DNA from: Ginglymostoma cirratum | Lineage: Eukaryota | Direction of reading: 5' to 3' | Length of the DNA: 64,000 nt | NCBI GenBank assembly: GCA_024137785.1 | Contig: JAHRHZ010000073.1 | Span: forward strand, 12,347,488-12,411,487 | Shown: positions 1 to 28,418 of the stretch, piece after piece | Layout: each line of letters opens with the position of its first letter | Numbering within the stretch: the first letter of the stretch is position 1 | Notes under the pieces: model-generated | What the model was told of the DNA's origin: nothing | Seen by the model: only the letters and a program-made list of their open reading frames with translations | Database searches by the model: none | Made by a program: the position numbers and the translations under genes

Positions 1-1940
1 CACTAGTACTACAAATTTCCCTTCACACTGTAGCACACCCTCTCTTATGTGTAAGCTTTTTTGTTCCTCGTATTCCTCTGACTCCTTCCTTGCTTATAAT
101 TTTTTGTAATTCTTTATCCTTTCTTTGTTCTCCTGATATATCGATTAGGGCCACTTCTTTCACTTTCTGTTCTACTATTTCCTCGATCTGTGCCTGCAAC
201 TCTTCTCCTGCTATTGCCCCTTTTTTAGCTAATTCATCTGCCTTTCTATTTCTGACTGGTGATAAGGTGATAACTTAAGAATGAGCTTTTACTTTCATCA
301 CTCCATATTCTTTCCCTTTCGCCTTCTCAAAGATGTACCTCAACAATGGGGCAGATGGGAGGACCTTCCCAACTGCTGAGACAAAGCCTCTCACCTCCTA
401 CAAGGGTAGGTATTCCATCAGACTGAAGCACACATACATAGTATCTGAATTTTTGAATGATCCTGGGGGAAGTTTATCTGGGTAGCTCACTATATATGCC
501 ACTGCTGCCAATTCAGCTGCTTGAGCACTCATGATCTTTGGCAGTTTGAGGTCTATGCTATTCACTTCTCGTCTTTGCTCATCTTCCATATGGATACCAC
601 AACCAGTTCTCCATTCTGCACCTTGTACAGATTAAGAGCCATCAGCAAAAGTTTTTAATGGTGATTTGTTATTCCCTTGCTGTGAATATTCCCTATTCAT
701 CTATTTCTGTCTTTGTCTGTCTCTTGTCTTGGATATTCCCTGTATTCTCTTTACCAATATTCCCTCCATTTTGTTTTGATACAAATGGGGTGTCCCCTGG
801 TAAATTAAGTTATCTGCAAACATGGCTGTACTGTAAAACCTTTTTACCTCAATGTTTCTGCCTAGTAATTTTAGCGTCCATCTCGTAATTCTGTTTTGGC
901 TCACTGTGCCATCATTAATACGTCCGTCCAGCAGCATCTGAATGGGTGTATGTTCCATCAAAATTGTCAATGGGTTCAACCCTACAATGTGGGTAAAATG
1001 TTGTACTGCCCAGAATACTGTCAATAAATGCCTTTCACATGCTGTGTACCCCTGCTGTACTGCTGTGAGCATGCGCAAGGTGTAGGCTACTGGTCACAAC
1101 TGACCATGCACCTCTTGGAATAAGACCGCTGATATTGTGGAATCTGTTGTAGCCATCTCCATGGAAAATGGTTCAGCTGGGTTTGAGGTTTTTAGGGCAG
1201 GAACACTCGCCAAGTCCTGTTTCAAAGCTACTATTGCTTGTGTGTGCTCTGGCTTCCATTCCCATTGGGTATTTTTCTTCAGTAACATCATTAGTGATGC
1301 TGCCTTTGTGGCAAAAAACATCAATATGGTCTCTACAATACCCAATCAAGCCTAAAAACGATCTTAATCCCTTCACATCTGTGGGGATAGGAAGTCTAAC
1401 TGTTGTTTCAATTCTTTGTTTGTCTATCTCTCTTTTTCCTGGTAGTAACACTACTCCTAAGTAACTTACTTCCTGCCTCATAATCTGAGCCTTTTTTGGA
1501 TTCAATTTTAACCCAACCTCCTTTAACAGTTGCAACACCTCATTCAGGAGCTGGTAATGCTCCTGTTTGGTTTCATTTTGTATCAGGCAGTCTGGCCTAG
1601 AAGAATCCCACAACTTATTTCTTAAACATTGATGAAATATTGATGGGAGTTGTGAAATCTCTGTGGCAAAGCTGGTCTTTAAAGGTAAAAACAAATTTAT
1701 ACTGACACTCCTTGGACAAATGGATTGACCAAAATCCATTATTTATATCCAGCACCATAAAGCACTGTGCAGATTCATTGTTTAATTGTGGTTTATGGAC
1801 TAGTAGCCACTGTAGATGCTGTGAAGGGTGTTACCTTATTTAGTTCTCAATAATCAATAGTCAGTCACCAACTCCAGTCTGGTTTCTTTACCAGCCAAAT
1901 AGGTGATTTTTTTTGTAGAGGTGACTCACCTTAATACCTG
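1..1940 (-). mobile_element. pol: Decayed pol gene of an endogenous retrovirus-like (lokiretrovirus/spumavirus-related) LTR element: RT - tether RNase H - RNase H - start of integrase
   Basis: Manual - strand translation across frameshifts and stops. RT: SPIWLVKKPDWSW*LTIDY*ELNKVTP, VLDINNGFWSI, QYKFVFTF, LPQRFHNS/PSIFHQ, LKLNPKKAQ..VSYLG, LRSFLGLIGYCR. Tether: SAVLFQE..PVAY..GYTACERHLLTVFWAVQHF. RNase H: TFADGS, SAQAAELAAV, NSDTMYV, KVKAHS, NRKADELAKKGA. Then a linker into an integrase-like N-terminus running off the window edge. Confidence 0.9.
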
Positions 1941-2036
1941 AGATAACAAGGTGTAGAGCTGGATGAGCACAGCAAGCCAAGCAGCATCAGAGGAGCAGGA
2001 AAGCTGATGTTTCAGGTCTGGACCCTTCTTCAGAAA
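1938..2036 (-). repeat. Short Penelope-associated repeat (~100 bp) with a hammerhead-like core
   Basis: Near-identical to 13855-13951 (+) and 33846-33922 (+). The - strand reads CTGAAGA-AGGGTCCAGACCT-GAAA-CATC. Confidence 0.75.
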
Positions 2037-2068
2037 TCCATTTTGGAGTAACTTAAAGTTACTTCTTG

Positions 2069-2090
2069 TCGACTCCCACCAGGGATGCCA
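2069..2090 (-). promoter_or_regulatory. Primer binding site (PBS) of the LTR element
   Basis: - strand TGGCATCCCTGGTGGGAGTCGA begins 6 nt after an LTR-like ...GGTAACA end. It has the TGG start and tRNA-3'-complement form; the first 12 nt match the complement of tRNA-Asn (TGGCGTCCCTGG) with one CpG-type mismatch. Confidence 0.7.
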
Positions 2091-2096
2091 AAGTTA

Positions 2097-2705
2097 TGTT
2101 ACCAGTCTCTGAGAGACAACAGTACATACATAGACGGAGATACAGGAGAGACACTTAGAGGTGTACAAAACCACAATTCATTTACTAAGTACTCAAACAA
2201 ATAACACACACTTTTAACTACTAGAGATATCTCAATCACTGTCTTTTACTACGCTGATTTCTGTAACTTAACCCAAACGCTATTACCCAGGAGAGTTCGT
2301 AGTTGGTCAGGCTGAAACTCTGTTCGATGTCTTCACCATGCCTCCTGACATAGGGTACTTCTTGCACAACATTAATCTTCAAAGTGTTGTTGAACGAAGG
2401 GATTTCTTCAGGCTGTTTATACACAAATCTCTGTGTCAAGTGTGTGCCTAATTTGGAATTATATGTGCATGTGACCAATCCTGAATGTTTTATCCGAATG
2501 CATATCTTATTTGGACTTAGCTGTGCACGTGATCAATCCCAAACATTTTGTCCAAATATATGCCTTATTTGGTGGAGACAGCGGTTCCTGATTTCCTGCA
2601 GTTTTAACTCATAGCAAACCTGACCGACTCAGTATAATTCCATTCACATAACTGCCCATTGTTAGGCCTTTTATCAGTTCCTATTGTCTTCAGCCTTATC
2701 CAACA
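2097..2705 (-). mobile_element. 5' LTR (~610 bp) of the retrovirus-like element
   Basis: - strand starts TGTT (2705) and ends AACA (2097). It has a TATAAA box near 2416-2421 and an AGTAAA polyA-like signal near 2245-2250, and is directly followed by the PBS. The outer boundary is inferred. Confidence 0.6.
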
Positions 2706-2774
2706 ATTGTAAAGCTGGAGACTTTCTTTATTTCTTACTTTTTTCTATCTTTTTGTTGTTTTTCAATTTGGGTC

Positions 2775-2870: not shown

Positions 2871-3365
2871 TGCATACAATCTCACATTGTCCCACATTAT
2901 GTTCTTTCTGCCAAGTTTTTACCCACTCCCTTAACTGTTTGTATCCCTCTGCAGATATTTGTTATCCTCACCACTTGCCCTGCCACCTATCTTTGTGTCA
3001 TCTGCAAACTTGATTATAATACATTCACTTTCCTCATCCAAGTCAATAATATGCATTGTAAGTAATTGTGGGTCCAACACTGATCCTTGTGGTGTACCAC
3101 TAGTTATTAATTGCCAGTCTGAAAACATCCTTCTTATCCCAACTTTTTCTAATCTGTCTTTAAGGAGTTAACCAATCCTTGCCCCATGCTAATATGCTAC
3201 CTCCAGCACACGGGCTGCTATCCTATTAAATAGCCTAATGTGTGGCACTTTATCGAAGCCTTCTGAAAATCCAAATGTATTACATTTACTGCACCCCCTT
3301 TATCTGCCCTGATTACCTTTCAAAGAATTCTAGCAAATTTGTCAGGCATGATTTTCCCTTCACCA
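2871..3365 (-). mobile_element. CR1-type LINE RT fragment
   Basis: ORF 2931-3128: SGTPQGSVLDPQLL..IIKFADDTKIGG. Upstream DFQK-like motif. Confidence 0.85.
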
Positions 3366-3767
3366 CATTTCTATCTTGTTAAACTTTACACATTAATCAT
3401 TTCCAAAACCCTTTCTTACTAAACACTGACATCTTAAGCACTGACTATAAGCTGATCTGTAGCCATATCCCACCATTAAATGAAACAGACGAGCTTCTTA
3501 ATTTCACCATGTCATACAGAAAGAACTGGAGAATAAAAAAGAAAGAGAGTTGCGGCGAGGAATAATTGACATATTCCCATGTGACAAAATGCAAAGCATT
3601 TCATTTGCAATTAATTACGAGATAAATCCAATGTATGTTGTACCCATTCCATCTTCTTGAATTGAAAGAATGAATTTGAAAGCAGTTGAAACCTCAAAGA
3701 GCTGAGGCTTAATTTTAGCAAAGCAGACCTCACATGCAGAAGTTCATTCATCTTTTATTTGAAATTG

Positions 3768-4164: not shown

Positions 4165-7090
4165 ATTTAATTTGATTTGATTTATTGTTGTCTCGTACCA
4201 CGATACAGTGAAGAGTGTTGTTTTGCGTGCTCTACAGTCAGATCATACCATACAGATGCAGCAGGATAGCAGAAAAGAGTGCAGAATACAGTGCTACAGT
4301 CACAGAGAAGGTGCAGAGAGAGAGATCAACATTAACATTTGAGAGGTCCGTTCAAGAGTCTGATAACAGTGGGGAACAAGCTATTTTTGAATCTATTTGT
4401 ATGTGCATTCAAACTCTTATATCTTCTGCCCAACGGAACAGGGTGGAAGAGAGTATAAGCAGGGTGGGAGGGGTCTTTGATTATATTTGTTGCTTTCCCA
4501 AGGCAGTGGGAAGTATGGGTGGAGTCAATGGATGGAAGGCTGGTCTGCGTGATGGACTGGGCTGTGCTGATGACTCTGTGTAGTTTCTTGTGATCTTGGG
4601 AAGAGCAGTTGCTATCCCACATTGTGATGCATCCATATAGGATGCTTTCTTTGGTGCGTCAATAAAAATTGGTCAGAGTCCTTGTGGGCATGCCAAATTT
4701 CCTTAGCCTCCTGAGGAAATAGAGGCACTTCTGTGCTTTCTTGACCTTAGCATTTATGATGGAGAACCAGAACAGATTGTTGGTGATCATTACTCCCAGG
4801 AACATGATATTTACAACCATCTCCACTTCAGCACCGTTGATGCAGAAAGGGGCATGCCGTTTTCTCCACTTCCTAAAGTCAGTGACCACCTCCTTCATTT
4901 TGCTAACATTTTTGGAGAGTTTGTTGTCTTTACACCATGCTGCTAAGTACTCGATCTTTTTCCTGTACTCTGTCTTGGTTATTGTTTGAGATCTGACCTA
5001 CAATGGTCTTCTTGTCAGCAAACTTGTAAATGGAGTTGGGGGTGGAATTCAGCTGCATAGATGTGAACATATAAGGAGTACGGTAGGGGACTGAGTACGC
5101 AGCCTTACAGGGCTGTGGTGTTGAGGATTATCGTGGATGAGGTGTTGTGTCCCGTTCTGACTGATTATGGTCTCTGGGTCAGGAAGTTGAGGATCCAGTT
5201 ACAGAGTGGGGAGCCGAGACCTAGGTTTCGGAGTTTGGAGGTGAGTTTGTTCAGAATTACGGTGTTGATAGTAGAGTTGTCGTCAGTAAGTAGGAGTTTG
5301 ATATAGGTCTCCTTGTTATCTAGATATCCCAGGGATGAGTATAGGACCAGAAGGATGGCGCCTGCCATCGATCTGTTGTTCCACAAAGGATCAAGGCAAA
5401 CTGGTTGGCTGCAGTTGATGTGAGCCATGATTAATTTCTTGAAGCACTTCACAGTTATGGAGGTCAGAGCCACCATAGTCATTGAGGAACGCTGCATGAT
5501 TTTGCTTTGGCACTGGGATGATGGTAGTCTTCTTGAAATAGGTGGGGACTTCAGGTTGTAGTAAGGGGAGATTAATGATGTCTGTGAATACTCCCGCCAG
5601 CTGGTCCGCACAGCATCAGAGTGCACAGCCGGATACTCCATCCGGGCCTGTCACATTCCATGGGATCGCTCTCAAAATGGCTGATCTAATGTCTGCAGCA
5701 GTGATCATGGTTATAGGTGCATCCGAGGCTGTTGGGACAGTTAACATCCTTTCACTGACCTTCTGTTCAAAGTCAGGGTAGAATACATTGAGGTGATTGG
5801 GTAGAAATGTTATTGCCTGCGATCTTGTCCGAATTCAATAGCCCATCATGTAGAGTGAGCCTTGCCACAAATGATGGATGTCCATGTAGTTGGACTGGGC
5901 CTCAAGCTTAGTTTGGTATTGCCTCTTGGTCTCTTTGATGGCTTTATGAAGGTTGTAGGGAACATTATGATTAACTTCTTCGGCATGCAGTCCTCTACAC
6001 ACTTACTGATGAAAACTGTAATGATAGTGGGCATACTTGTTCAGGTTGGCCACTAAGTTCTTGAATATGGATCCGTCTACCGACTCTAAGCAGTCTTGTA
6101 GAAGCTCTTCCATTGCCTCAGACCACACTGTACTACTTTCTGTACTGGGTCCTCAGGCTTCAATTTCTGCTTGTAAGCCCTGAGCAGGAGCACCGTATTG
6201 CGATCTAACTTTTCAAAATGCGGATAGGGGATGGAGTGGTAGCAGCTCTGATGGTTGTATAGCAATGGCCCCTTGACCTCTGGTTGTCAGGAGATGTGCT
6301 GATGGTACTTTGGTAGCACATTCTTGAGGTTGGCCTGGTTGAAGTCATTGGCTGCGATGAATACAGCCTCAGCGTATTCCATCTCAAGACAGTTTGTAGC
6401 ATTGTATACTTCATCAAGTGCTCTATTCACTTCTGCATGTGGTGGGATGTAGACCACCGTCAGGATAGTGGAGCAGGTAGTAGGAACGACACTTCACTGT
6501 AACATATTCTGGTCCAGGAGATGTTGATCAGGAAGCAGACCCTCTCCACCCTTTGCTTTGCCCAAGGATATTGAATGGTCCATTCAATGAACTGAGAAAT
6601 CCTCAGGTTATAAAGCACTGCAGGAGTGAGTCATCTGTCTGTGGAACAGAGCACACAACAGTCTGTCAATTCTGTTTAGACGGTAAGTCTAGCTTTGAGA
6701 GCATCCATGTTGCTTTTAGTGGCTTGGACATTTGACAGGAGTATACTGAGGAGGGGGCTGTCTTGAAACCCCATAGTTTCAGTCTCACCTGAAGTCCAGT
6801 GCATCTCCTACATTTGCTGGGCTGCTCTTAGTCAATCCTGCGTGTTGGTGAGGGAAGTCTGCTCTCCGAGAGGTAACTGTGTGCTCCCGATGGTGTCGTG
6901 AGTACCAGCTGCGGGCGTGAGCATTCCTATGGACCATGTGGTCTGTTTGGTCGGGAATCCTTGATGTAGGGTTACTGTGGGGTCAGGTCTTGTCCCAGCA
7001 CTGGTTCAGGTCTCCACATTCTGGGTTTCCATGAGGTTGGGCCTGTGAGAGGCTGGAAGAGTTTTGATCCCTCTGGACTTCAGAAGAAAG
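4165..7090 (-). mobile_element. Near full-length decayed Rex1/Babar-type non-LTR retrotransposon (endonuclease + RT)
   Basis: Fragments VYIPPHA (EN), [74 protein letters not shown]. 3' tail AATAAATCAAATCAAA at about 4170-4185. Confidence 0.85.
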
Positions 7091-12063: not shown

Positions 12064-12203
12064 NNNNNNNNNNNNNNNNNNNNNNNNNNNNNNNNNNNNN
12101 NNNNNNNNNNNNNNNNNNNNNNNNNNNNNNNNNNNNNNNNNNNNNNNNNNNNNNNNNNNNNNNNNNNNNNNNNNNNNNNNNNNNNNNNNNNNNNNNNNNN
12201 NNN
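12064..12203. other. Assembly gap (140 N)
   Basis: Run of n. Confidence 1.
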
Positions 12204-28307: not shown

Positions 28308-28418
28308 GACAGCTTTCCATCTCGTTTTGGAGGAATTCATTTTGTCAATCAGCCTTGGTACATCCATGCACTTTATACTGTCATTAGGCCCTTCCTCAAA
28401 GAGAAGACCAGAAAAAGG
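28308..28418 (+). CDS. CLVS2: Clavesin-2 internal coding exon (CRAL-TRIO/Sec14 domain), 111 bp, phase 0/0
   Basis: ttcatttcattacAG|GAC ... AGG|GTaaga. Encodes [37 protein letters not shown]; GGIH, TVIRP and LKEK are CLVS2-type residues. Confidence 0.95.

Follow-up and report, generated by a model that had tools for sequence, protein, structure and literature searches.

This study was concerned with an endogenous retrovirus (ERV) in a 64,000-nucleotide (nt) stretch of Ginglymostoma cirratum DNA (contig JAHRHZ010000073.1, positions 12,347,488 to 12,411,487), referred to below as the window. The provirus is 8.2 kb long and lies on the minus strand, with its 5' third at window positions 1-2705; window positions are used unless coordinates of locus L011 are given. 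The element is probably a dead canonical ERV, that is, one outside the lokiretroviruses (Loki). Its nearest relatives are frog and coelacanth ERVs annotated as "NYNRIN-like", it would fall in the class III/clade Huo grade that includes CmiERV lineage I (CmiERV-I), and its env is likely of the paramyxovirus F type.

A sequence-only reading of the window had claimed the minus-strand order long terminal repeat (LTR), primer-binding site (PBS), reverse transcriptase (RT), tether, RNase H and start of integrase, and this order is present as described. The 5' LTR (609 bp, TGTTG...AACA) occupies 2097-2705 and is followed 6 nt further on by the PBS at 2073-2090. The RT remnant at 1259-1936 is frameshifted, matches PF00078 in two frames and has its YxDD codons deleted. 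The tether, or connection, at 866-1258 is a degenerate Ty3/Gypsy-type RNase H without catalytic acids, as judged by PF17919, PF17917 and alignment. The second RNase H, of the retroviral type, lies at 215-655, and positions 1-214 form a linker to the integrase zinc-binding domain (PF17921, E 1.8e-15; PF00665), which starts right at window position 1. The extension past position 1 that the same reading had proposed recovered, from there leftwards, the integrase (L011 ~10000-8965; PF17921, PF00665), env (L011 ~8950-5440), a purine tract (PPT) and the 3' LTR (L011:4524-5085, ~4.9-5.5 kb left of window position 1), the integrase, env and 3' LTR all on the minus strand. The element therefore has the features of Retroviridae: LTRs that pair with each other, PBS, PPT and a target-site duplication, a pol gene in the order protease, RT, tether, RNase H, integrase (the protease being known from other copies of the family), and an env with furin site, fusion peptide and membrane anchor.

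The tether and second RNase H are carried by a single minus-strand frame, 2-1345, which contains six stop codons. PF17919 (E 9e-20) and PF17917 (E 8e-18) match residues 30-160 of this frame and PF00075 (E 1.4e-7) matches residues 231-377; its best PDB match is the RT-RNase H of murine leukemia virus (MLV), with both domains aligned. Other weak Pfam matches, such as an intein and DUF2883, were regarded as chance. In an alignment with Gypsy-like and retroviral Pol, the first domain has MATT, ERH and MEH in place of the three acids, and the second has the full D-E-D-H-D set, both as previously described from the sequence. Other copies read EVAAT at the acid site of the first domain. Because the tether and the RNase H lie in the same reading frame, the second RNase H belongs to pol and is not a separate insertion. 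A Gypsy element that had independently acquired an RNase H and an env would be consistent with the best profile scores of the tether, which are to Gypsy-type RNase H. Such an origin is extremely improbable, however, since the two domains are co-linear in many copies as well as in intact frog and coelacanth Pol, and a shark+Gypsy grouping was rejected by the approximately unbiased (AU) test (p-AU 0.0036, RT+tether under LG+G4, with only two Gypsy-like rows). The earlier statement that this is not a plain Gypsy element thus held. The dual RNase H is common to all retroviruses and is not specific to Loki.

The affinity of the RT was determined with a 158-amino acid (aa) frame of copy L021 as the query, and the database searches listed 28 and 120 Pol relatives. 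Among these, P0036 carries the motif strings of snakehead retrovirus (SnRV), P0081 and P0087 bear the names of foamy viruses, and rows were assigned to Loki when their motifs were identical to those in the supplement of PMC7947760. The tree references comprised no ERV-L, Odin, alpha/beta/lenti, fish foamy-like or CmiERV-I rows. The shark RT was 54-57% identical to the frog and coelacanth "NYNRIN-like" Pol and 54% identical to the SnRV-identical protein P0036, which makes SnRV the closest named virus by RT identity. Identities to epsilon-like rows were about 40% or less, to Loki 31-37%, to feline and simian foamy viruses (FFV/SFV) 31-35% and to Gypsy-like rows 29-33%. In the RT phylogeny, which had been called for beforehand, the shark rows grouped with two unnamed proteins and then with the frog and coelacanth ERVs, outside both Loki and Gypsy. 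The corresponding RNase H tree was unresolved. A scan of viral contigs with the RT gave three pattern matches, none of which was confirmed.

The sequence-only reading had suggested two affinities, with lokiretroviruses and with a deep branch near the foamy viruses. Loki RTs read RCPFGY-NSP-EFNIF and the supposedly foamy-like motifs are those of snakehead retrovirus (PMC7947760 supplement). None of the Loki motif set was found in the shark RT. The motif DINNGFWSI is present as reported and LPQ(R)FHNS spans a frameshift, but their foamy-like interpretation did not survive, as they are ordinary SnRV/class III motifs.

The first affinity would make this family the first lokiretrovirus in cartilaginous fish, or a sister lineage of Loki. 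It is consistent with the dual RNase H, a likely F-type env as in Loki, and an integrase that groups with Loki. Thus the Loki idea suits two parts that had lain outside the sequence first read, env and integrase, and fails for the RT. Besides the RT motifs and the low RT identity, Loki was monophyletic at 100/100 without the shark rows (in a tree from which 9 of the 14 shark rows had been removed beforehand, along with 10 redundant references). Shark+Loki was rejected on RT+tether (p 2e-5 under LG+G4, 28 rows; p 0.042 under C20, 20 rows), as was a grouping of the whole grade, the turtles and Loki (p 0.004), and gag in this family contains a zinc knuckle. We therefore consider a lokiretrovirus very unlikely.

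A deep foamy-like (clade Tu) ERV is scarcely more probable. Foamy viruses make 4-bp target duplications, their Gag is without a Cys-His box, and they carry accessory genes between env and the 3' LTR. The NGFW and PQGF-NSP motifs, the 4-bp duplication and an F-type env, which is known in foamy viruses (PMC11468914), would agree with this origin. On the other side are the low RT identity to FFV/SFV, the CCHC knuckle in gag, a weak gag-asp protease match with no spuma protease family in the frames scanned, and an env that stops ~350 nt short of the 3' LTR, which leaves no room for bel or other accessory genes. Shark+foamy was rejected with two foamy rows on RT+tether under LG+G4 (p 0.012) and gave p 0.054 on RT alone (27 rows); in unconstrained trees the shark rows never grouped with foamy viruses. 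The family lacks these foamy hallmarks, and the AU tests of a foamy sister position were divided.

Several results weigh against placing pol in the class III/clade Huo grade. First, shark+Loki was not rejected on RT alone (p 0.148), nor was shark+FFV under C20 (p 0.55). Secondly, the tether and integrase resemble Loki more than SnRV: the tether is 31-35% identical to Loki and 23% to SnRV, and the integrase is 29% identical to SnRV. A starred integrase clade (95/94) joins shark, frog, coelacanth, turtle and Loki and excludes SnRV, foamy and gamma/epsilon; this is the placement of the CGIN1/Loki integrase group, CGIN1 itself not being among the tree rows. Third, a four-row shark clade joined to SnRV was rejected (p 0.022, LG+G4), and a wider grade with SnRV was neither recovered nor rejected (AU p 0.064 and 0.054). 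Since the deep branches are weak and there is no supported SnRV clade, the label "clade Huo" is based on identity and on CmiERV-I. Lastly, ERV3/ERV4 are described as having a 5-bp duplication and no gag zinc finger (Chong 2014); the present family has the 4-bp register and a gag knuckle.

The frog, coelacanth and turtle records P0009-P0012 and P0037, all annotated "protein NYNRIN-like", are intact ERV Pol proteins of the same grade. As judged from sequence, the grouping of their integrase with Loki suggests that such ERVs may have been the source of NYNRIN/CGIN1.

The envelope is likely of the paramyxovirus-F-like type. A HMMER search with env gave nine matches, six of which are env fragments; the other three (P0150-P0152) are unrelated bacterial repeat proteins and were dropped. 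A profile of the env fragments led to one intact protein of 714 aa, P0157 from Mustelus asterias, with ~400 residues between the furin site and the membrane anchor. A 63-row env profile, which includes sister copies and one piece of the present copy, matches env of this copy in order at positions 140-260, 241-505 and 520-650 of 652 (L011 8005-7637, 6740-5964 and 5926-5504). When the AlphaFold model of P0157 was searched with Foldseek, 14 PDB matches had E <=0.001 (best E 7.8e-5), and all 38 of the PDB rows among those listed were paramyxovirus or pneumovirus F proteins. In BFVD there were 21 matches, led by lispivirus glycoproteins and followed, among the top ones, by walleye-virus Env, baculovirus F, foamy Env and paramyxovirus F. 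The order of helices and strands in the model fits F2/F1, ESM features of P0157 fell in the Baculo_F and Fusion_gly clusters at 0.91-0.92, and the published text on Loki Env gives the same motif order by eye.

Gamma-type Env is characterized by an immunosuppressive domain (ISD) and a CX6CC motif in a short transmembrane (TM) subunit. The ISD motif was found in none of 11 env loci and a CX6CC-like pattern in one of them, so env does not show the gamma-type signature.

The F assignment also has evidence against it. The model is poor (mean pLDDT 42.9, with core blocks at 57-77) and the Foldseek TM-scores are 0.09-0.14; a single-sequence fold of P0157 was uninformative (pLDDT 34). Pfam, run on the env pieces and all 63 alignment rows, identified no viral envelope family, PF00523 included, apart from one weak GP41 match (E 0.04), and a PDB sequence search with the env profiles gave nothing below E 0.3. 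An ESM recognition value of 1608 flags the Baculo_F/Fusion_gly match as weak. VIA-align listed no F protein among 50 rows and identified generic helices (best Z 7.7). In addition, the fold was judged on P0157, a homologue ~24% identical, and not on env of this copy. It could be that the placement of pol is right and env is an unrelated long class I fusogen whose F matches arise from shared long helices, as the low model confidence and TM-scores, the coiled-coil matches of VIA-align and the missing sequence-level F match would allow. We consider this unlikely, because the PDB rows were F proteins and not random helical proteins, the secondary structure order fits F2/F1, and the independent ESM feature search named F families. 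An F-type env thus remains the preferred assignment.

Walleye dermal sarcoma virus and walleye epidermal hyperplasia virus Env ranked second and fifth in BFVD (E 6.5e-8 and 7.7e-7), hinting that epsilonretrovirus Env may, on modelled structure, also be F-like; no paper linking the two was found in our literature search. P0157 and P0158 (Mustelus asterias LOC144497276 and LOC144503695) represent near-identical intact env proteins of 700-720 aa at several loci, annotated as "uncharacterized", and the named env homologues amount to eight records from five species, all sharks. Within env of the present copy there is an insertion of ~950 nt (L011:6686-7633) with no match in 10 other loci or in the window. 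A search of the genome for the env family, in which 62 of 770 candidates were scored, gave 65 matches with identities of 24-51%, and several distinct decayed families carry the same env type in this one genome.

One env locus is of a different kind. At G000:C263:30444465-30446759 (L040:922-3216, plus strand) there is an uninterrupted env-family frame of 764 codons, whose identity to P0157 is ~24%. Neither pol nor a pair of LTRs occurs in the ~16 kb of adjoining DNA that could be read. Contigs of a second organism cover the frame with substitutions and no listed indel inside it. No RNA record was listed for it, and the raw RNA runs gave 33 reads (X15) and 0 reads (X16), mostly from flanking repeats. 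Its sequence makes this solo env a candidate co-opted F-type env gene of sharks.

The provirus belongs to a multi-copy family with dozens of decayed copies. The genome searched comprises 4.36 Gb and the counts cover scored candidates only. In the DNA search 40 of 1458 candidates were scored and yielded 62 matches, the near-full pol matches being 73-81% identical; in the protein search 94 of 2385 candidates were scored and yielded 109 matches. In none of these 109 does a stop-free stretch extend over more than roughly half the query, so the search for intact copies proposed from the window ended without one. Other copies retain a CCHC gag zinc knuckle, a protease motif and YVDD. In the present copy ~2.5 kb, comprising gag, protease and the start of RT, are missing between 2043 and 1936; in their place is a short interspersed element (SINE) 3' tail of ~100 nt (1938-2040, strand not assigned). 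The SINE junction maps to a gap of 2.5-2.6 kb against copies C45, C43 and C87, relative to which the RT also has small deletions, the YxDD codons among them. Two further copies of the SINE tail occur inside the window.

The duplication predicted at 2706 was found in a 4-bp register (5' copy at 2706-2709, minus strand), although it agrees with the flank beyond the 3' LTR at only three of its four letters. The same three-of-four match occurs in all four copies with both outer ends, and the target duplications of the family look to be 4 bp. The PBS, compared in five copies and with host tRNA 3' ends, is ambiguous: by eye tRNA-Arg(CCT) matches 15 of 18 positions, and tRNA-Asn(GTT) fits the first 12 nt. 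The two LTRs of this provirus differ at 49 of 542 aligned sites (Kimura two-parameter distance 0.097), and LTR divergence in four other copies is 0.12-0.16. With the two substitution rates borrowed in the literature, 2.2e-9 and 2.2e-10, the LTR divergence gives 22 to 220 million years, from which only "old" is safe.

The parent virus would have primed reverse transcription with a host tRNA, removed RNA with its second RNase H while the first served as a structural tether, and integrated with a 4-bp duplication. Cell entry would have relied on a class I fusogen that was cleaved by furin and had a long subunit resembling F1 (F1/F2-like). Reinfection may have brought the virus into the germ line repeatedly, at least tens of millions of years ago, after which the copies would have decayed and this one would have lost gag and protease at the SINE junction.

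The host gene is represented by a CRAL_TRIO_N exon ~50 kb to the left of window position 1 and by a clavesin-type CRAL_TRIO exon at 28308-28418, both on the plus strand. As these exons flank the provirus, it is intronic and antisense, lying in the intron upstream of the second exon. The intronic position claimed earlier is thereby supported; the gene is probably CLVS2, a name based on its protein sequence. This copy is most likely neutral, and no function is expected of it. LINE reverse-transcriptase fragments adjoin the LTR at 2931-3380 and 4332-4997 (weak PF00078; PF09004), and a run of N at 12064-12203 lies outside the provirus.

As a locus this is an unremarkable dead ERV, and its importance lies in the family. 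Wang and Han (PMC7947760) leave open four scenarios for the origin of retroviral Env and assume that the F-type Env is confined to Loki. A canonical-side pol combined with an env that is likely of the F type and an integrase of the Loki type, in a family whose nearest published relative has an env of the gamma type, speaks for an ancestral F-type fusogen that was later replaced, which would be in line with foamy Env structures. Tentatively, and with doubt prevailing, the shark family and its frog, coelacanth and turtle relatives might be the earliest-branching canonical grade, retaining an ancestral F-type env and a Loki/CGIN1-type integrase. The F-type Env would then have been present in the ancestor of Loki and canonical retroviruses, the gamma type would have been swapped in later (CmiERV-I, XtERV-S), and one F-type env would have been domesticated in sharks (C263). 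In addition, the family has led to a candidate for a co-opted F-type env gene in sharks, and ERV screens that require a known Env homologue, as in Han 2015 (PMC4422223), overlook a large family in sharks.

Class III/SnRV-related ERVs in sharks are already known (Han 2015, PMC4422223; Xu 2018, PMC6001957), and 2843 clade III RT loci have been counted in six chondrichthyan genomes. The F-type Env is in print for Loki (PMC7947760) and as an F-like fusogen core in foamy Env (PMC11468914), and an eLife 2026 paper still states that canonical retroviruses generally carry retroviral class I Env. No description of an F-type env on a class III/SnRV-grade pol was found in the literature searched, with subscription papers and Repbase outside the search.

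The closest published element is CmiERV lineage I (class III/clade Huo) of the elephant shark, which clusters with snakehead retrovirus (Han 2015, PMC4422223). By eye from the supplement (it was not in the tree), it shares ~37 of 52 RT-block residues and the tether motif CERHLL with the shark family, together with a gag zinc knuckle, a chondrichthyan host and the LTR-gag-pol-env layout. However, its env is of the gamma type, with ISD and CX6CC identified by eye, and its PBS appears to be that for Ser, whereas in the shark family the ISD is absent, the F1-like subunit is long and the PBS resembles that for Arg or Asn. SnRV/clade Huo and the class III ERVs of Xu 2018 (PMC6001957) share the RT identity, the motif set, the tether plus RNase H and TGT...ACA LTR ends of the class III type; SnRV differs in its tether and integrase and in forming no supported clade with the shark family. 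XtERV-S (PMC8278194) differs in its class I TM env, 5-bp duplication and Ser PBS.

Lokiretroviruses (Wang and Han 2021, PMC7947760) share the dual RNase H, the likely F-type env and the CGIN1/NYNRIN-type integrase clade; they differ in RT motifs and in RT(+tether) phylogeny, and the shark family has no smc-gag by Pfam. The published Loki screen reported none in six chondrichthyan genomes. Foamy viruses probably share an F-like fusogen core and the 4-bp duplication, but differ in RT, in the CCHC knuckle of the shark family and in its lack of accessory-gene space. The walleye dermal sarcoma and epidermal hyperplasia viruses, whose Env is among the best BFVD matches of the env model, have an epsilon-type (class I) Pol. 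Odin retrotransposons, sister to Loki, have a dual RNase H without env, whereas the shark family has an env. Lastly, Ty3/Gypsy elements (Metaviridae) have one catalytic RNase H, and the shark RT lies outside them.

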